From IMG/VR virus record IMGVR_UViG_3300001598_000005, positions 361-64,360 of that record: a DNA stretch of 64,000 nucleotides. One strand, 5' to 3'. Of this stretch, positions 2,878 through 38,757 are shown piece by piece. The stretch is from a virus. The translations under genes were made by a program, and so were the position numbers. Every line of letters starts with the position of its first letter. Positions within the stretch are counted from its first letter, which is position 1. The notes below the pieces were generated by a model. It saw only the letters and a list, made by a program, of their open reading frames with translations, had not been told where the DNA came from and searched no databases.

Positions 2878-3344
2878 TCATGGAAGAATATAAGCCAAGA
2901 TATTTTACGATCAGGGAACTAACAATAAGCGCAACGGCAAGGAACTATGGCATAAATAACGATCCGAATGAAGCTGTGCTCGATAACCTGCTGAAGCTAT
3001 GCAAATATGTACTTGATCCCATCCGTGAGATGTGGGGAGGTCCGGTTTATGTTTCGAGTGGTTATAGGTCTCCAGAACTTAATGCGAAGCTCGGCACTCT
3101 CGGTCACTATGTAGCAAAGAATTCAAGCCATATGCGCGGACTCGCTGCCGATATTAAGGTGGGTAACTCAGATGACAACAGGAAGTTGTTCTATGCAATA
3201 GTCAACAGCGGAATACCTTTCGAGAAACTCATTGACGAAGAGGATTGCAGGTGGCTTCATATCTCGTTCAATCCGAACGATCAGAAACCTAAACAGATTG
3301 TCTATATCGGAAAGAAAGGAAAATACACAGTCTATAAGAAATGA
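2874..3344 (+). CDS. Endolysin, peptidase M15A (Zn D-Ala-D-Ala carboxypeptidase-like)
   Basis: SSGYRS, SSHMRGLAADI and WLHISF motifs. Confidence 0.88.
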   Translation: MIMEEYKPRYFTIRELTISATARNYGINNDPNEAVLDNLLKLCKYVLDPIREMWGGPVYVSSGYRSPELNAKLGTLGHYVAKNSSHMRGLAADIKVGNSDDNRKLFYAIVNSGIPFEKLIDEEDCRWLHISFNPNDQKPKQIVYIGKKGKYTVYKK

Positions 3345-3625
3345 AGAGATATCTTATCAATGAGCTTAAGAGACTGCTCGATGACCTGGAGAATGATCGA
3401 GTTGAGTGTGATCCTGAGAGAATAAGCCTTGGGTTGTCAATGATCTCTCATCGTCCTGTATCATCATATGAAGCATATACAAACATACTTCATATCTCAA
3501 GAAGCTCATTCTATGAGTATATCGATCAAAAAAAGCTTCCTGCCGGTAGAAAACGTCAAGGATTCAAGGAACTGATCTGGTATGAAGATGAGCTTATTGC
3601 TGCAAAGAAGAAACTTAAACAATAA
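3341..3625 (+). CDS. Small HTH DNA-binding protein (AlpA/excisionase-like)
   Basis: ILHISRSSFYEYIDQKKLPAGRKRQGFKELIW. Confidence 0.65.
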   Translation: MKRYLINELKRLLDDLENDRVECDPERISLGLSMISHRPVSSYEAYTNILHISRSSFYEYIDQKKLPAGRKRQGFKELIWYEDELIAAKKKLKQ

Positions 3626-3636
3626 TAACAATATAA

Positions 3637-5385
3637 ATGGAAACAGTAACAAGAACTATTGGCGGTCTTGGTGGCAAACTTGGCAGGGTGGCAATCGAAC
3701 TGCCTGCCAACGTGAAGGCGTTGCTGAGAAATGGCACACTGACCGTATATGACCTGTTGGAGCTTGCCATAAATACCATCAGTGTATTGGTAAGCAAGAA
3801 CGACAAAAACGTGGATGCACTGGAGGAGTGGACAGCGAACCTTGCAGAGTGGAGCGAGGAGCTGAAGAATGCAGTGACAGAAATGCTATACAATGCGCTC
3901 CTCGATGCTGATTTTACTATCAAGAATGGCACGATAGGGTTTGATAAACTATCTGAATCTGTAAAGGAGTTCTTGATTAAGGATATTAGTCTTGAGAACG
4001 AGAATGGCACATGGTACTTGGTGTTTACTACACTTGGAGATGATGGCTTCGTAGAACTGCTTGAGAAGAAGGTAAGTCTTGATGAACTTGTGGAATACCT
4101 GAAGACAAAGAAAGGCAATGCCATTGAAAAGTTGGAGGTGGATGATAAGGGTACGATTAAGATTTATATCATAGACGAAGAGAATCCTATCAAAGCTACT
4201 ATTCCATACGCAAAGGACGTGATTGGTACAAGTATGGATTTTGTGTTGGGTGGACTTATGACAACAGGTCAGAGCAAGAAGGTGGATGGTCTTGGAGCAG
4301 GACGTGGACTGACGATGAGCAGCGACTACAAGCTGAACATCAACGTGGATGATAATGGTGTATTGACTATCGGTGACAAACGATATCAACTTGAGGAGAT
4401 TGAGGACAATCTTACCTACGAATATTCATACCCAATCATCACAGCATTCAGCTACCCATCGATGCCAAGCGAAGGTGGAACGATTAAGCCGGACGTTCTT
4501 TCGTTTACACAGACAAAGAACACATACAGGAATGGAGAGAAGGTAGATTCAGAGACTATCTATGGTTCACTCAGCGACATGAAGGGTGCTACCGTAGGCT
4601 ATGTGGCTCAGTTTGCTGGTACTGGAGTAAAGGTTGGAATTGACGGAAAGGTGACATGTGAAGGTTCACTCCTATCTTATGACAACGACATTGCTGAGGT
4701 TGTTCCAAGGCTGACGATGAACGACAAGCAGGCAATGAACGGAAACGAAAAAAAGGTAACTATCACCCAAAGCGGAGCTACTGCCACTTTGGAATCAAAC
4801 ACATTGTCTGTTAAGAGTTCAGCGTCATCTACCACTATATCACTTAGCAAGAAGACGAACAGCAAGATTAATATTACCAGTGTTGAGATAAGCGGTTCGG
4901 GTGCAAACTACAGCCTATCGAGTGATAAGAGGTCTGTTGTTGTTATTGTACTTGCAAATACTACAACTTCGAAGAAGACATACGGAGTAACTCTTACTAC
5001 GAACATCAAGAATTCGGATGGCAGCTATGTGAAGCTGAATGCTACAATCACTCAGGCAGAAGGTGGAGAAACACCAGTACCATCATATAACATCTACTAT
5101 GGAAAGTCACTTGCATTGCCTGTAGATGTAACCATCGGAGATAAGTTGTCGACCAGCGACTCGTCGTTTGAGGTAAGTGTAGAGTCTGCGTTTGCAGACA
5201 AGGTTAAGTGCCACTGGATAGCAATCAGCAATACAAGTGGTTATACTGTAGAAAAGGCAACAGACCAAGATGGAGACGAGGTAACATTGACTACATATAC
5301 ATCAATAGACGGATATAAGCTATACTGTAGGGAGTCTGCTGGAGCATATTATAACTCAAAGACAATATTCAAAATTAAAAAATAA
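3637..5385 (+). CDS. Virion/tail-associated protein with Ig-like (BACON-like) domains
   Basis: Ser/Thr-rich beta-type C-terminal half; VTITQSG and ANTTTSKKT..ATITQAE motifs. Confidence 0.55.
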   Translation: METVTRTIGGLGGKLGRVAIELPANVKALLRNGTLTVYDLLELAINTISVLVSKNDKNVDALEEWTANLAEWSEELKNAVTEMLYNALLDADFTIKNGTIGFDKLSESVKEFLIKDISLENENGTWYLVFTTLGDDGFVELLEKKVSLDELVEYLKTKKGNAIEKLEVDDKGTIKIYIIDEENPIKATIPYAKDVIGTSMDFVLGGLMTTGQSKKVDGLGAGRGLTMSSDYKLNINVDDNGVLTIGDKRYQLEEIEDNLTYEYSYPIITAFSYPSMPSEGGTIKPDVLSFTQTKNTYRNGEKVDSETIYGSLSDMKGATVGYVAQFAGTGVKVGIDGKVTCEGSLLSYDNDIAEVVPRLTMNDKQAMNGNEKKVTITQSGATATLESNTLSVKSSASSTTISLSKKTNSKINITSVEISGSGANYSLSSDKRSVVVIVLANTTTSKKTYGVTLTTNIKNSDGSYVKLNATITQAEGGETPVPSYNIYYGKSLALPVDVTIGDKLSTSDSSFEVSVESAFADKVKCHWIAISNTSGYTVEKATDQDGDEVTLTTYTSIDGYKLYCRESAGAYYNSKTIFKIKK

Positions 5386-5928: not shown

Positions 5929-8900
5929 ATGATATTTCTGAAATACAGGACATCTGACAGTAGGTATGTTCCCCTTGTTCCTTTCAAGGGGGGCAAACCT
6001 ATTTTGAAAGTAACGGAAGGTTCTCATGGAGTATTCGGATATACCAACGTAGAGAACCAGTTAGTAAGGGATTTTATCCATGACAAGACCTATCCAGAAG
6101 GAAACGGAATAGATGCAGAAGAGTCGCATGTAAATGATTATATGAATATAAAATACAGCGACAAATCTGCTTATAATAAATTTACCTATCCTGTATGGAC
6201 AGAGTGGGGAAATCCATACATGCTTGAGACAAATGGAGGAAAGTATGTAAAGTTCAACATCAAAGGAAAGACGGAAACGGTACGATTCGACTTCAAGAAT
6301 GTATCGGTAGGAAGCAACGGATTTGAACCTATCTATAATCTCATTCCTCAGCAGGAGTATGAATATACCATTTACAACAATTCAAATACTGCTGTATATT
6401 CTGGAACTATAAAAACCACTGGTCAGTGCCGAATGATAAAGACCAACAGGGTAAGCAATATCCGAGACATTGGAGGTTGGACATGTGACAACGGAAAGCG
6501 CATGTCGTATGGAAAGATATACAGGAGTGCATGGATAGAGAACATACACGAAGCGTTAAAAGGCACAAACGCTACAGATAAATCACAGGCACAGGAAGAT
6601 GTTGCTACAATGCACGATGTGCTGAAGATTGGAGCTGAGATATACTTCTTTGGAGGATATCAAAATTCTGACGAAACAAAGAAGATCAACCAGACAACCA
6701 CAACGTCAATCATTGGTTCTGATGTTCATTATTATGGACCATATTGGGAAACAGGCAAGACAACGGTTAGTTATTCTGGAAAAGAGTGGGATTCTGCATT
6801 GGCAAGCATTGGAGCTGACAGTTCATTTAATCTGGGTGCTTTTGATTCTTTCTTTGATAAGACTGGAAGCAGTTGGATTGCTCCAAGAGTTGAGAGGGTG
6901 CTTGAGGTGATAATGTACGAACTAAGTCAAGGACGAAATGTGTACTACCATTGTCAAGGTGGAATGGATAGGACCGCAGCGATTACATTCGTACTCATGG
7001 CTCTTTGCGGATGCAGTGAAGATGCGCTTATCAAAGAATGGGAACTTACATCATTTGCTTCATCTCAACGTAAAACTATAACAAACACTACTGATAAACG
7101 AAACATTAAGTACGCTTTCAAGACACTGAAAGATACATGGGGTGCTGATGGGAAGAATGATACAATTAAGAGTCAAGTGACAAGCTGGCTTAGAGCAAAG
7201 GTTTGGAAATCTTCTAATTATACAGCAGCTCAGTTTGAAGATAAGCTGAATAAGCTGATAGGACTTATTACAGAAGATGACGTAAGAGTTGAGCCTGATG
7301 AACCAAAAGAGAAGGAGCTGTATGAGGTAGAGATTGTAGACAATGGAAAGGATGCGTCGAACATCTACTCATATACCGTAAATTCAAAGTATACAGATGG
7401 TTCGATTGTAACGACAACAGAAGAGATAACTGAAATCAACAAAGGGTATCATGACGAGGATGGAGTGTTCCAAGAATCGACTACAGTATACTCGACAAAC
7501 ATGATTCCTTGCTATGGATTCAAGAGTCTGATATGCGACAAGAACACCACAGCATCACAGCTTATAGCTTCGTTCTTTGACGAGGAGGGCATTGAGTTTA
7601 TCAGCACTGCAACAAGCACAGGAACAGAGAACTTCACAGTCGCAGTACCAGAGAATGCGTACTATGTTAAGTATATCATTGACAAGGACAAGAACTATCG
7701 TGCTGTGCTGAGTGGATATGAAGCACCTGAGCCAGAACCTGACCCAGAGCCAGAACCTGACCCAGACGAACCACAGAAGGATGCGGTATTGGCAACAGTA
7801 ACAGACCTTGGAAAGCAGGACAACACCTACTGCTATGCTGTGGACGACCAAGTGGAGAGCAAGGCATATACAAAGCATGAATCTACGAACAGGACAATTA
7901 TCAACCGCGAGACTGGCGAGAACGAATCGCAAGACGCGACTGTATCGACAGATTACATCCAGGTAAGAAGCAGCGACGGAAAGCGTTATGCCACAAAGAT
8001 AATCACCAACGTGTCGAGCTATACTATGGCTGCATGCTACGATGCAAACAAGAACTATCTTGGATATATAGCAGGCAAATTCTCTCCGGCAGACACTACC
8101 GATGGATGGTGCGAGAAGGTGGAGAATCTTGGAGAGGAGTATACATTGTACAACGTGATTGACGGCACTGTGTATATGCGCTTTGTCTTCGTTAAGGGGC
8201 AGAATACTGAGTATACCATCATTGGTGATATTACTGATGTAGAAAAGCCAAGCAAGCCAACCATAACCATCGACGAAGAGAAGAAATCGATAACGATGAG
8301 TGTGTCTGGCGACCATGATATTTACTATGTGATATATACTGACGCAAGCGAATATCATCTGCCAACGACAAACGACTCGCACTATGCAGGAGGATTCTCG
8401 CTGACTAAGACATGTTATATTGCAGCAAGGTCATACAACAGCACCACCAAGGCATACAGCGACGAACAGAAAGTAACCTACACCTACAACGGAGGTGGAA
8501 GTGAAATCAAGTCGATTGGCGTAAAGGAGGGTGCAAGGTCTGGAAACACAGTTCAGTTCTCATGGTTCCAAGTGGGTGGAGTAACAGGCACTCCTTCATG
8601 GAAGGTAAGTGATACGACCAACTTCAGCATCTCGACGAGTGGACTGATGACTATCAAGCAGACTGCAAACAATAATGCTGTGACCGTCACATGTACTGTT
8701 GGAGGATATACTGGAACACTCAAGAAGAGCTATTCGTATGTAAGCAGTGGAAGCATAGAACTTGGCAAGGAGTATAAGAATGCTGAATCTCCGTTTGTTG
8801 TCGTAGAAAAATATCTCAGCTCAGCAACAGGAAGCGTAAATGGAGAAAAAGAACCAGATTTTGTATACATGAAGATTGACAAGGCTTCGTATACTCAAGG

Positions 8901-34806: not shown

Positions 34807-34947
34807 TTAATAGTTATGTGTATCATACTTTTCTTCGTTATCCTCTCCGTAGGTGCAATGCCCGACCTCTATCTCTGCGTATGGGCATCTATGTGGTCTT
34901 GGGCATTGATCTACTGGTGTGGTTTGGAATTTACAGATGTGTTTCAT
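34807..34947 (-). CDS. 46-aa Cys/His-rich protein
   Basis: Manual translation MKHICKF...; ATGA-coupled to TRD module 7. Confidence 0.45.
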   Translation of the reverse strand: MKHICKFQTTPVDQCPRPHRCPYAEIEVGHCTYGEDNEEKYDTHNY

Positions 34948-35102
34948 AAGTCTTCTTCATTAATAATTAGTATTTTGGGGCAATTTCCGTGACCAGAGGT
35001 GTGGCAGTCGCTTATTCCTCTTGGATCGATGACTGCACCATCCTGAGAGGAGTTGATGTGACAGACAATTCGTATTCGATGATGACCATCGAGCCTGAGC
35101 AT
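34944..35102 (-). CDS. Stand-alone TRD-like module 7 (52 aa, intact, no internal G tract)
   Basis: MLRLDGHHRIRIVCHINSSQDGAVIDPRGISDCHTSGHGNCPKILIINEEDL; missed by the ORF track. Confidence 0.65.
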   Translation of the reverse strand: MLRLDGHHRIRIVCHINSSQDGAVIDPRGISDCHTSGHGNCPKILIINEEDL

Positions 35103-35223
35103 GGGAAATGCCCCCCCCTCGCGTCAGTCCAGACAAGCAAGCGACATCGTGGTATCTTGCACGAATTGCGAATGAACATCCGTCAGCGGTGGTGTTCTGT
35201 GGGATATGAAATTCTTGCTTCAT
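35012..35223 (-). CDS. TRD-like module 6, frameshifted at G8 (35111-35118); in frame at G9 or G6
   Basis: Corrected: MKQEFHIPQNTTADGCSFAIRARYHDVACLSGLTRGGGHFPCSGSMVIIEYE... Confidence 0.65.
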
Positions 35224-35357
35224 TGATTTCTAATATACACGTTCCAGATGTTCCGTACTGACCATAGATAAGCGTTGCACCTCCGTATTTGTAGTAGCCA
35301 GATGTGATTGTGACTGCTGCCCCCCGAATCTGCGTTAAGTGGAAATAGCTTCTTCAT
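35183..35357 (-). CDS. TRD-like module 5, frameshifted at G6 (35320-35325); in frame at G5 or G8
   Basis: Corrected: MKKLFPLNADSG(G)AAVTITSGYYKYGGATLIYGQYGTSGTCILEINE... Confidence 0.65.
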
Positions 35358-35503
35358 ATTCTTCTGCATAGGCAATACCAGCATCGCTTACATTCGCTTT
35401 TAAGCATCTTGAAATGTTTTCATACCCCCCCCCTAAAAAACTTTTGAGAGGCATTTGTGTATACTCCAGACGGAATAATGCATTTGTATATTGGATTGCC
35501 CAT
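35335..35503 (-). CDS. TRD-like module 4, frameshifted at G9 (35425-35433); in frame at G8
   Basis: Corrected: MGNPIYKCIIPSGVYTNASQKFFRGGYENISRCLKANVSDAGIAYAEEYEEAIST; ATG overlaps the MTase TGA. Confidence 0.7.
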
Positions 35504-36675
35504 CAGAACTCGAACTCTAAAAGACCTTGACCTCTGTTGTCTGTTCTCGTCTCGATGGTTGCATCGTACTCTGGATAGAAGAGGTTGTTGAAGATATGGA
35601 CCATACATCCTACTACGATGGAGTTGCCTGCCATCTTGTATAACTGCGACTTGGAGATGACGAGCCGCTCGACCATGTCGGTGCTACCTTTCTTAGCAGG
35701 GACAATCTCGGTGGTCATCAGCTGGTCGATGCGGTTGTCTTGCACGTCCATCAGACGGAAGCATTCACGCGGTGTGAGCTTGCGGATGCGGAAGCGGATG
35801 CCGTACTTGTGCTGCACTCCGTTGTCGTCTGTTTCGTAGCGAATCCACTTGGGCTGGTCGTCTTCGTAGGTGAGGTCGTATATATTTCCTGACGGCGCTG
35901 TGACGTGGATAGGGAGACCGTTGGCGTCTTTTTCTTCGTCTGGCGCGTCTGCGCTTTTCTTTGGGTTGTCGCTGAAGTCGTGGTTGTTGGTGAACTCGCT
36001 GCTGTTTCGTAGGAAGCCATCAACAGCCTTGTCGGAAAGGTAGTATGACTCATCGACTTCTTGCTCAAGTATGTCGGCAAGTACCCGCTCAAGTGGGAAT
36101 GGCTTGTGGAACTGGTAGCGGTTGGCAATGTCGTCGCGGATGGAGATCATGAACATTCGCTCTCTGTTCTGCGGCACTCCGTAGTCCTTCGCGTTCATTA
36201 CTGCCCAGTAGTTCTTGTATCCGTATGACTCTACGCGGTCGCACCACGATTGGAACATTGGCATGAATTTCTTGCTGACGATAGCCTTGACGTTCTCTTG
36301 CATCAGATACTTAGGGCGAAGGTCGCGGATAGCTTTCTCGGTGTGCCAGAGGATTCCGCTTCGTGTGTCGCTTCCCTCGTCGAATCCTCGCTGCTTGCCT
36401 GCCTGACTGATGTCTTGGCAAGGTGTGGAGTAGGTAAGTAGGTCGATGCCTCCTTCAATCTTTCCGAGTGAAAGCCAATCTACCTTCGTCATGTCTCCAA
36501 GATTACGGTCAGCATACTGAGGAAATAGCAGGTTGTGACCTTGGATTGCGTACTTGTCGATTTCGCACCACGCGATGAGGTCATAGTCGAAATCTGGATG
36601 TTGATTCTTGATCTGGTCAAGAGCGAGGAATTGGCTATCATAGCCGCTGCAAAGTGTTACTACGTTAAGTTTCAT
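35503..36675 (-). CDS. C5 DNA cytosine methyltransferase core
   Basis: Motif I LCSGYDS, IV STPCQD, VI ENV, VIII QNRER, IX RKLTPRECFRLM, X KMAGNSI. Confidence 0.95.
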   Translation of the reverse strand: MKLNVVTLCSGYDSQFLALDQIKNQHPDFDYDLIAWCEIDKYAIQGHNLLFPQYADRNLGDMTKVDWLSLGKIEGGIDLLTYSTPCQDISQAGKQRGFDEGSDTRSGILWHTEKAIRDLRPKYLMQENVKAIVSKKFMPMFQSWCDRVESYGYKNYWAVMNAKDYGVPQNRERMFMISIRDDIANRYQFHKPFPLERVLADILEQEVDESYYLSDKAVDGFLRNSSEFTNNHDFSDNPKKSADAPDEEKDANGLPIHVTAPSGNIYDLTYEDDQPKWIRYETDDNGVQHKYGIRFRIRKLTPRECFRLMDVQDNRIDQLMTTEIVPAKKGSTDMVERLVISKSQLYKMAGNSIVVGCMVHIFNNLFYPEYDATIETRTDNRGQGLLEFEF

Positions 36676-36823
36676 ATTTCGTGTTCTGATATTTCTGTTA
36701 CGAATCTGCCGAAGCTGCCATCAACTCTTGTGTGCAGTGTTCCGCAGATGGAATCGTTGGTTGCTCGGTCATATGGGTCGAGGTACTGCCCCCCCTAATG
36801 GGGACTATCCTTTTGGATAGCAT
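36672..36823 (-). CDS. TRD-like module 3, frameshifted at G7 (36789-36795); in frame at G8
   Basis: Corrected: MLSKRIVPIRGGQYLDPYDRATNDSICGTLHTRVDGSFGRFVTEISEHEI; corrected TGA overlaps the MTase ATG. Confidence 0.7.
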
Positions 36824-36824
36824 C

Positions 36825-37019
36825 TCAGCGAGTTGCCATGGGAATGGGTATTTCATCTATTATGAATACATAAGGTGTTGTGTTTGCCATCTCGCTTCCG
36901 TTGCAGCACACGCCCCCCCCTGCGAATGTTGTGATGCTGTTGCAGATGTCGCGCATCGGTCTTGGTGGGTTGTTGTGGTGCCCTTCACCACGGCTCCATG
37001 ATAGTATCTTGAATTTCAT
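36825..37019 (-). CDS. TRD-like module 2, in frame (ON) with G8 (36913-36920)
   Basis: MKFKILSWSRG...DICNSITTFAGGGVCCNGSEMANTTPYVFIIDE. Confidence 0.7.
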   Translation of the reverse strand: MKFKILSWSRGEGHHNNPPRPMRDICNSITTFAGGGVCCNGSEMANTTPYVFIIDEIPIPMATR

Positions 37020-37153
37020 ATTCGATTGTTGTTTCGTATAGAAGCACTCCGTTGCTTTCGCTTGTTAGTGCAGGATGAATATTCCCGAAGCATTGTACTC
37101 TTGCTCGTCTGTAAGTAGATGAAGGATAGCTGCTGTCGAATACCCCCCCCCAT
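36985..37153 (-). CDS. TRD-like module 1, frameshifted at G9 (37143-37151)
   Basis: G8 gives MGGVFDSSYPSSTYRRARVQCFGNIHPALTSESNGVLLYETTIEYE...; G7 or G10 would fuse it to the upstream ORF. Confidence 0.65.
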
Positions 37154-37427
37154 ATAGCACTTTGTTGAACCTGACAAACCTTTTGTCGTAGCAGCAGTTT
37201 TGCAGTAGTTGCTTTATCTTGTCCGTACGATCGATCATTGAATCATAGCTTAATGTGATCTTTGAATTTGCATGAATGCCTAATACATTGATATCGTACC
37301 CCAAATTCTCAAGAGTACATGCAATCTCATCAATGCTGCTTTTCTTGAATACTTTGTATCCGTGCTCTTATATGTATTCAACAATTTCGTAAATGTTGAA
37401 ATCGGATAAGTCTACTTCTATTCTCAT
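37065..37427 (-). pseudogene. Hypothetical gene with in-frame TAA at codon 20
   Basis: MRIEVDLSDFNIYEIVEYI*EHGYKVFKK...; TAA at 37368-37370, and the frame continues into ORF 37065..37304. Confidence 0.55.
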
Positions 37428-37452: not shown

Positions 37453-38757
37453 TTACTTAGATATGCTCAATATCCTGATCTTTGTCTCTTCAAGATCGAG
37501 TTTTTCGATGCTGTATGCAATTTGTCCGTATTGATAGTCAAATGGGATCTTGCTGGTTATAAATTCAACCATGCTCTTCGATTGCAAAGATGCATTAGTC
37601 TCGTTGAATTTCACCATGCCACTGCACATACCTTCTTTGTCGTATTTCACAAACGATATAAACACAGAGTTTGAACCATTTACAGTGTATACACGATATC
37701 CGTCATGTGCTCTTTTTCCGAGTATTGAACTGAAATCCTTGCTGAATGTAATAAGATACATACTCCTTGGCTTGTTGATGCGTATGGAGGCCATTGTCAT
37801 TGTAAGTCGAGGAATAAACTTTTTAGGATCTACACACTCTTCGCATATAGTTTCTTCTTCTTCCTTTTCCGGCTCTGGATTTCCTACGAAATTGATTGCT
37901 ATATCAGCCATCTTAATGATCGTATCAGCCACAAGCTGGTAATGATAATTGTTAACGTATGTCTTTAGGTCAGCTGCCAACTTATTGATGCCAGTCAGGT
38001 TCCATCGTTCTCTTTTCAGCCTGTTAGCCTCCTTCTCTTCCTTTTTCTTCTCTTCAATAGCAATCTGTATTTCCTTTTCTATTTTGTCTTTTTTATTGAC
38101 AACAGGCTTATTAAGACTGTCGAGATCGATATGTCCGGTAACAACCAGGCCATATTTTGGCAGAGGTATATGCTCGGCATTTTTAATTCCTATTGATTCG
38201 GCAGTCGATGACTCAATCCTTGCCTCTTGGTCGTATGACGATACGCATTTAGTGCGATATCTTACGATTGCTTCATCTGCAAGCTTCTTGACTGATTCGT
38301 AGTTTTCACAAGTAAGTTTGCCATCCCAAACGCCCTGCTTAATGGCTGCATTGAGCACCTTTGAAACAATAAGGATATCATCTATATCAAATGCAGGATT
38401 TGATTCTTGTGGCTGTATCTGGTTAAATCCCCAGATAGTCCTCATTGCACAGCACACTACATCGAGCGAGATATTATCTTCCTTCAGTCTCTTTGGCTGC
38501 CATCCGTATTCGTAGCACATCTCCATCCATCGTTGGTTAATTGCCAATACAGCATCTATGTCTGTATTTCCACGACTTATTGGATGTGAGCATATGATTG
38601 CGAATAGTGCAGGTATATCCTTATACCAGTTTCCATAGAATGCAACACACGGCTGGTGCCATTCCTTACCTAATGCCAATTGGTCTTTTCTGAAACTCAC
38701 TATGATTCCTGCTCTCCCTATCTCAGAGATCAGTATTTTCTTCTGTTCGTAATTCAT
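37453..38757 (-). CDS. Hypothetical protein (434 aa)
   Basis: Long ORF in the early operon; no motif recognised. Confidence 0.7.
   Translation of the reverse strand: MNYEQKKILISEIGRAGIIVSFRKDQLALGKEWHQPCVAFYGNWYKDIPALFAIICSHPISRGNTDIDAVLAINQRWMEMCYEYGWQPKRLKEDNISLDVVCCAMRTIWGFNQIQPQESNPAFDIDDILIVSKVLNAAIKQGVWDGKLTCENYESVKKLADEAIVRYRTKCVSSYDQEARIESSTAESIGIKNAEHIPLPKYGLVVTGHIDLDSLNKPVVNKKDKIEKEIQIAIEEKKKEEKEANRLKRERWNLTGINKLAADLKTYVNNYHYQLVADTIIKMADIAINFVGNPEPEKEEEETICEECVDPKKFIPRLTMTMASIRINKPRSMYLITFSKDFSSILGKRAHDGYRVYTVNGSNSVFISFVKYDKEGMCSGMVKFNETNASLQSKSMVEFITSKIPFDYQYGQIAYSIEKLDLEETKIRILSISK

Follow-up and report, generated by a model that had tools for sequence, protein, structure and literature searches.

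Where does a phage C5 methyltransferase (MTase) obtain its target specificity if its own chain carries no recognisable target-recognition domain (TRD)? This question is raised by a locus in a stretch of 64,000 nucleotides (nt), hereafter the window, which is the whole DNA analysed and covers bases 361-64360 of the IMG/VR virus record IMGVR_UViG_3300001598_000005. The record is a 64,360 bp virus with direct terminal repeats and is rated complete. It is a complete 64-kb tailed phage, and its MTase locus is one leftward operon. The mini-genes discussed below sit in a long leftward gene block whose coding strand is the minus strand; as judged by three-frame reading, three units (M1-M3) lie upstream of the MTase gene and four (M4-M7) downstream of it.

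A first-pass annotation of this DNA had proposed a split C5 MTase accompanied by stand-alone TRD mini-genes that are switched by poly-G tracts. Its overall reading is supported here by TRD homology, by frame breaks at the tracts and by a co-folded model, but its "split" core is not. We thus consider it fairly probable, at about 0.6, that a TRD-less core is served in trans by those modules that are in frame, with each tract acting as an independent slippage switch.

Results

The MTase core is a single chain without a recognisable TRD

The core is an open reading frame (ORF) of 390 amino acids (aa). It matched PF00145 with 185.3 bits (cut-off 22) over residues 4-365, corresponding to profile positions 2-322 of 324, and the match extended over both the N-terminal (I-VIII) and the C-terminal (IX-X) motifs of a C5 MTase. 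The PCQ, ENV, QNRER, RKLTPRE and GNSI motifs were all found in canonical order. Motifs I-X are therefore contained in one ORF and the MTase of the window is not split, while a genuine distribution of the motifs over two polypeptides, as in M.AquI, was found in the related locus L007 (L and P numbers denote the related loci and proteins collected in this work).

The solved C5 MTases M.MpeI, M.HhaI and M.HaeIII aligned solely to core residues 38-215 and 296-365, leaving 216-295 unmatched, and no module-like match was found within the core sequence. Hence, the earlier claim that the region between motifs VIII and IX shows no TRD signature was confirmed, as no known TRD matches there. In the AlphaFold2 model of the core, which has a predicted local distance difference test (pLDDT) value of 62.5, residues 188-246 fell below 50 and are predicted to be disordered, and strands were predicted at 257-293. 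According to this model, residues 257-293 would form a small beta platform in place of the TRD, after a disordered linker of about 188-246. The variable region of the core is conserved in its closest relatives P0002 to P0005. Among the best 120 listed core relatives, 103 are circularly permuted with IX-X before I-VIII, 7 are N-halves and 10 keep the canonical order. The permuted proteins measure about 432-440 aa and likewise contain no in-cis TRD.

The small units resemble single TRDs

On sequence comparison, all seven units are homologous to single TRDs, each of a different family. Over 36 aa, M7 shares 64% identity (E=2e-15) with a single unit from the tandem variable region of P0086, a C5 MTase of 520 aa. 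Together with the match of M1 to the in-cis TRDs of L020 and L023 (Table 1), this bears out the likeness to C5-MTase TRDs which had been proposed for the corrected peptides. M7 and M1 are thus homologous to TRDs of in-cis arrays of the SPR type. The tandem arrangement inside one polypeptide that goes with that type was not found, and the units are encoded beyond the 390-aa ORF, in different frames and with their own starts and stops.

A full HMMER pass with M7 through 1.84 billion representatives (E ≤1e-3) gave 79 proteins, 47 of which were not longer than 130 aa. When they were sorted by a crude motif count, 45 of the 79 had the TRD motif without an MTase motif, 26 had TRD and MTase motifs in one chain and 8 lacked the TRD motif, most of these being unrelated repeat proteins. 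Many of the 45 are 51-58 aa long, begin with Met and have tails like ILIEYE. Meanwhile, M7-like TRDs were found fused to an MTase N-half (P0132, P0160) or C-half (P0123, P0143), within the full multi-TRD enzymes P0138 and P0174, and at the end of the permuted core P0088. To judge from their sequences, such natural fusions speak for a joint action of module and core. P0125, P0149, P0178, P0188, P0189 and P0197 were rejected as M7 relatives, being long repeat proteins without the TRD motif.

The units were also compared with a local library of 27,758 ORFs, taken from 105 related loci and supplemented with fetched proteins, in which matches were counted at E ≤0.01 (Table 1). M2 to M6 matched mini-ORFs beside other phage MTases, and full-length homologues of M2 were present as mini-ORFs in L017, L008, L056, L058, L050, L059, L069 and L072. 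The post-tract piece of M1 matched the in-cis TRDs of L020 and L023 as well as mini-ORFs of L007 and L027 (2.4e-6 to 7.6e-6). The N-part of M6 matched L022 (4.7e-7), L003 and P0163, and the in-frame form of M6 is drawn from its by-eye resemblance to L022. In P0163 (92 aa), an M6-like N-part, out of frame, is joined to an M7-like module; therefore the M6-M7 neighbour order recurs in another phage. Sequence searches of the PDB with M5, M1 and the M7 profile returned nothing significant and hence no solved chain with these TRD families. An ESM Atlas search with M2, whose own model has a pLDDT of 0.34, returned no usable match.

Poly-G tracts decide the reading frames of six units

Seven G/C runs of at least six were listed in the window. 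Six of them fall within 2.1 kb around the MTase gene and all of these are on the same strand, as C runs on the plus strand that correspond to G runs on the coding strand (Table 1). Elsewhere in the window there is only one more, a G6 at 5988. The full-window listing thus agrees with the first-pass annotation, in which a cluster of G tracts had been noticed around the MTase and no G/C run of seven or more elsewhere.

Three-frame reading similarly recovered the seven proposed units with ends overlapping the starts and stops of their neighbours. Every unit ends in a hydrophobic-x-Glu tail, and the units are chained in such a way that the ATG of the next one lies inside the tail of the preceding one (..ATGAA..). 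The likely start of M5, for example, is ATG 35357 within the M4 tail. The MTase gene is part of the same chain, as its start is overlapped by the M3 stop (ATGA) and its stop by the M4 ATG (TGATG), and the M7 stop overlaps the ATG of the following gene.

An in-silico scan of tract lengths gave the lengths at which each unit would be read through. M2 is in frame at its present G8. M3 is in frame at G8 or G5 (now G7), M4 at G8 or G11 (now G9), and M5 at G5 or G8 (now G6). M6, now G8, is in frame at G9 or G6 with a tail containing VIIEYE, while at G7 or G10 its N-part is fused to M7 instead. The frame that is open across the M1 tract contains no ATG, GTG or TTG. If M1 is started in the frame of TTG 37304 and ATG 37238, it is in frame at G10 or G7, and if started in the frame of TTG 37177 and ATG 37153, at G8 or G11; its tract is now G9. 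The scan and the three-frame reading agree that only M2 and the tract-less M7 are intact, as had been claimed. The further claim that a change of 1-2 nt restores each ORF held for M3, M4, M5 and M6, while the N-terminal frame of M1 is ambiguous. It should be pointed out that G8 is an in-frame length for M2, M3, M4 and M5, plus M1 if started in the TTG 37177/ATG 37153 frame, and that ATG 37153-37151 shares its G with the M1 tract.

Homologues provided a second view of the frames. A single-frame homologue of M3, a 77-aa ORF of L007, aligned to frame 2 before the tract and to frame 1 after it. The single-frame homologues of M4 (47-aa ORFs of L090 and L039) switched from frame 2 to frame 3, and the homologues of M5 in L041 and L101 from frame 1 to frame 2. 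Because single-frame homologues switch frame at the tract, M3, M4 and M5 are currently out of frame with respect to the conserved protein. In the split-frame alignments of M3-M5 the frame breaks coincided with the tracts and occurred nowhere else. Thus, as in a contingency locus, the length of a homopolymer within the coding sequence decides the frame. The A/T runs of 6-7 in the window served as a control for homopolymer error. They lie in intact open frames of 582, 1024, 897, 771 and 536 aa, and therefore a general homopolymer problem in the assembly was not seen.

M7 is predicted to dock at the TRD position of the core

The core (own alignment A3) and M7 (own alignment A1) were co-folded as protein chains alone, with M7 as the only module. 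The interaction prediction score from aligned errors (ipSAE) was 0.84, 0.83 and 0.76, and the best of three controls reached 0.02. In the calibration of the tool, 58 of 80 solved complexes attained the ipSAE mark applied, as did 2 of 110 mismatched pairs, counts that are rough as own alignments were used. The runs shared at least 70% of contacts, and the partner pLDDT was at least 69.

In the predicted complex, the hydrophobic tail of M7 (residues 44-48) contacts core residues 294-298, the strand running into motif IX, and M7 residues 24-30 contact core residues 168-170 (motif VIII) and 198-200. The modelled position of M7 would correspond to that of the TRD in single-chain enzymes. This is what the first-pass annotation had anticipated of a co-fold, and in the DNA-free model it was obtained at 0.83 against 0.02 for the best control. 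The model thus supports binding between M7 and the core. A contact mode through the tail strand would explain why every module keeps its hydrophobic-x-Glu tail.

The arrangement recurs in other phages and tract lengths vary among relatives

A profile of the M7 family identified 25 IMG/VR loci. In 4 of them (L010, L020, L023 and L025) the TRD is inside an open frame of 550-841 aa with MTase motifs, and these four have no G/C run of six or more, while such runs are present in 19 of the other 21. In L007, the N-half is 62% identical to the window core, and 13 G runs are distributed along a row of mini-ORFs between the N-half ORF and the C-half ORF, whose tails and embedded starts are like those of the window units. 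L017 has a permuted core flanked by tracts, five on its upstream side and six on its downstream side, which is also the layout of the window. A profile of the core family gave 232 confirmed IMG/VR loci. Of the 80 retained, 79 have the IX-X segment ahead of I-VIII, and the remaining one (L031) is cut by the contig end. On the MTase strand of the 105 loci, runs of at least seven comprised 229 G runs versus 32 C runs, and 87 of the 105 loci had at least one such G run.

Tract lengths were compared in 37 locus pairs, each at least 97% identical across 3 kb or more, with 236,677 aligned bases in all. Of the 188 indels in these near-identical pairs, 43 fell in G/C tracts of six or more. L077 and L079 differed over 9005 nt by 0 mismatches and 3 indels, all in poly-G. 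Hence, the comparison of related phages that had been suggested along with the original claim does reveal different lengths. In the lineage of L032-L047, L052, L054, L055 and L057, a G7 inside the permuted core gene (position 4546) was length-constant in 19 of 21 loci, while the tracts of the flanking modules differed in length. Taken at the sequence level, the length variation among relatives is the pattern expected of contingency loci. L047 has a G6 at the core-gene run with unchanged match coordinates, probably by substitution, and L049 has no run there.

The tblastn search of M7 found no match among phages, and that of the core and P0088 found only matches below 60% identity. A single-protein scan of viral contigs for a close relative of the window phage returned nothing.

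Several further features were seen in the related loci. In L007, the N-half ORF ends with an A9 run (about 4965-4975), which a TRD-like frame (..ANSLTSR..) follows closely; this A tract may gate the fusion of the first TRD to the N-half. In L003 (3483-4549), the match to the MTase N-half is interrupted for about 1 kb between the motif I region and motif IV, which on sequence suggests an inserted element or an intron-like sequence. The G22 run at 66-87 of L068, 180 nt upstream of the permuted core at the contig end, may be an assembly-end artefact. In L002 (PP511379.1, Dulem virus 40; 2980-4920), a two-chain C5 MTase is annotated as adjacent ORFs of 258 and 373 aa, and the annotation of this virus contains no mini-gene array.

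Features of the locus

The features of the locus are listed in Table 1. No promoter-like or terminator-like signal above chance was found inside the array. The start of the Cys-rich gene that brackets the array on the M7 side is coupled to the M7 stop. A 19-codon ORF beyond M1 ends at TAA with the module-like tail ..IYEIVEYI and is in frame with an open frame that runs on (to 37304) into a 79-aa ORF upstream of the M1 tract. This 19-codon ORF may be what is left of an eighth module, or of a first gene that was once longer.

Table 1. Features of the MTase locus in window coordinates, with matches of the units in the 27,758-ORF library.
Feature	Coordinates	Strand	Description	G tract (coding strand)	Library rows	Best match
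46-aa ORF	34807..34947	-	Cys-rich bracketing gene, M7 side; no Pfam match
M7	34944..35102	-	52 aa, intact; TRD of 'INSSQDG..HTSGHGN.PKI' type	none
M6	35012..35223	-	out of frame	G8, 35111-35118	6 (N-part)	4.7e-7 (N-part)
M5	35183..35384	-	'GYYKYG' type TRD, out of frame	G6, 35320-35325	10	6.7e-10
M4	35335..35503	-	out of frame	G9, 35425-35433	14
C5 MTase core	35503..36675	-	390 aa; PF00145, E=2.5e-54
M3	36672..36856	-	out of frame	G7, 36789-36795	2
M2	36825..37019	-	64 aa, intact; tract in frame as Gly-Gly-Gly	G8, 36913-36920	35	1.9e-8, mini-ORFs of 56-73 aa
M1	36985..37304	-	TRD of 'SYPxS..RRxRVQ..P(A/T)LT' type; out of frame from either candidate start	G9, 37143-37151	37	in-cis TRDs of full-length MTases in L020, L023 (~3e-6)
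19-codon ORF	37368..37427	-	module-like tail
434-aa ORF	37453..38757	-	bracketing gene, other side; no Pfam match

Discussion

Based on these results, the locus would probably operate as follows. Each in-frame module would be made as a protein of 50-70 aa and would dock on the core in trans, its tail strand adding to the one that runs into motif IX, with its loop region over motif VIII and the catalytic cleft. A docked module would endow the core with a single specificity. When the polymerase slips on a G tract, the module concerned would be toggled independently of the others, and a phage burst would then carry mixed methylation patterns. This could be a hedge where hosts differ in their restriction enzymes, and perhaps also against enzymes that depend on methylation. 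The specificities of M2 and M7 would be on in this assembly.

Several observations weigh against this reading of a TRD-less core with switched trans-acting modules. The conserved platform at core residues 257-293 could itself be an unrecognised TRD. Pfam searches with nine module pieces gave chance-level matches only, and the post-tract piece of M6 had 0 matches in the 27,758-ORF library, leaving its in-frame tail with no detectable homologue. When the M1 N-terminal frame was compared with five homologues in three frames, z did not exceed 1.9 and either N-part is a candidate, so that the start of M1 is ambiguous. The co-fold pass, with shallow own alignments and no DNA, may lean on the likeness of the two chains to single-chain C5 MTases. 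In addition, the blastn search of phages for a close relative of the window phage gave only three matches of about 60 nt, and the length differences among the relatives, which come from metagenome assemblies, could partly be homopolymer consensus errors.

The last point leads to the explanation that the tracts are simply miscalled, in which case all true tracts would be in frame and the phage would constitutively make seven stand-alone TRD proteins with no phase variation. Runs of G6-G9 are indeed error-prone on some platforms, and the lengths in the relatives likewise come from assemblies. However, the corrections needed in the window are mixed in sign (+1, -1, -2), the A/T runs of 6-7 lie within intact long ORFs, and the G7 of the core gene stays constant in 19 of 21 related loci while the module tracts vary; moreover, the enrichment of G on one strand (229 vs 32) is a genomic feature whatever the exact lengths are. 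Miscalling thus seems an unlikely account of the whole. A slippage that acts during expression, by RNA polymerase or ribosome, would yield small amounts of every module at any tract length in the DNA, so that the tracts tune dosage and are not heritable switches. It would account for most tracts being out of frame, and bacteria are known to show transcriptional slippage where homopolymers are long. Such slippage is best documented for A/T runs, however, and the DNA lengths do differ between near-identical relatives; a structure that would stimulate slippage was not seen either, although no search was aimed at one. We accordingly give this explanation little weight.

Two other explanations concern the origin of the units. 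The mini-ORFs could be decaying remnants of a pseudogenised in-cis TRD array beside an MTase that is self-sufficient through an unusual variable region, with a fixed or relaxed specificity. Five of the seven units are broken, as decay would predict, and the core segment 257-293 shared with P0002 to P0005 could bind DNA. Yet the breaks are confined to the tracts and not scattered, intact stand-alone homologues (51-61 aa) are common, many diverged phages have the same chained layout, in which starts lie within tails and G tracts are module-specific, and the co-fold puts M7 at the TRD position. We therefore regard decay as improbable. Alternatively, the modules might be silent cassettes that are recombined into the MTase gene, as in pilin or hsdS shufflons, since an array of variant modules adjoins the expression site. 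This explanation was rejected because no direct or inverted repeats were found to flank the modules besides the tracts themselves; each module also has its own start and stop, and the core has no resident TRD to exchange. It appears far less probable than any of the other three.

Two-chain and permuted C5 MTases such as M.AquI (alpha/beta), M.EcoHK31I and M.BssHII demonstrate that assembly from separate chains is possible, and M.phiBssHII is reported to have its TRDs at separated locations. Relatives of the window locus resemble them in being split (L007) or permuted (79 of 80 loci). M.AquI-type enzymes, however, divide the catalytic motifs, whereas in the window these motifs are in one chain and the TRD is separate and multiple. 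In the multispecific MTases of Bacillus phages, one core is combined with several TRDs that are short (about 40-60 aa) and independent of one another. Each TRD has one specificity, and the enzymes give protection against several restriction systems. The window modules are like them in being homologous to TRDs of in-cis arrays (P0086, L020, L023). In the Bacillus phage enzymes the TRDs are constitutively expressed parts of one polypeptide, placed between motifs VIII and IX, whereas in the window they are separate ORFs with their own starts, six of them with poly-G. M.SPRI, M.Phi3TI, M.Rho11sI and M.H2I represent this established in-cis type (PMC12707154).

Poly-G tracts in phage genes are described for Fletchervirus receptor-binding proteins, the BPP-1 methylase gene and a PB1-like baseplate gene (bioRxiv 10.1101/2025.10.21.683753), and are mentioned further in PMC12823448. 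As in such contingency loci, including phasevarion MTases, a homopolymer within the coding sequence sets the frame in the window; in the known loci this provides bet-hedging through stochastic, reversible on/off switching. What is switched in the known cases is an entire enzyme or a receptor-binding protein, whereas here up to six specificity modules would each have a tract of their own. An analogy may also be drawn with HsdS, which PMC12707154 gives as the specificity subunit of Type I restriction-modification systems, in that a separate specificity subunit would be exchangeable on a common methylase. It is an analogy only, as HsdS differs in fold and chemistry (adenine N6, M2S1 complex). Our literature search, in which coverage of subscription journals was mostly absent and supplements were unopened, found no paper on stand-alone C5 TRD genes or on poly-G-gated TRD arrays.

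Beyond this locus, the evidence leans slightly towards a class of gut and rumen phage C5 MTases, in one respect akin to Type I enzymes, in which a TRD-less core would be combined with interchangeable subunits of 50-70 aa through strand addition near motif IX, each subunit being a poly-G contingency locus. The result would be a combinatorial, heritable and reversible methylome switchboard, of which the window would hold the unsplit, unpermuted form. If this is true, it would be a new build of C5 MTase with a separate, exchangeable recognition subunit, and the contingency loci of phages would extend from receptor binding to anti-restriction. The arrays would also supply minimal TRD modules as a natural library in which each specificity could be determined singly, a resource for working out TRD-to-motif rules and for methylation tools. 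Finally, the methylomes of gut phage populations would be mixed by design, and this would bear on host-range prediction and on methylation-based host linking.

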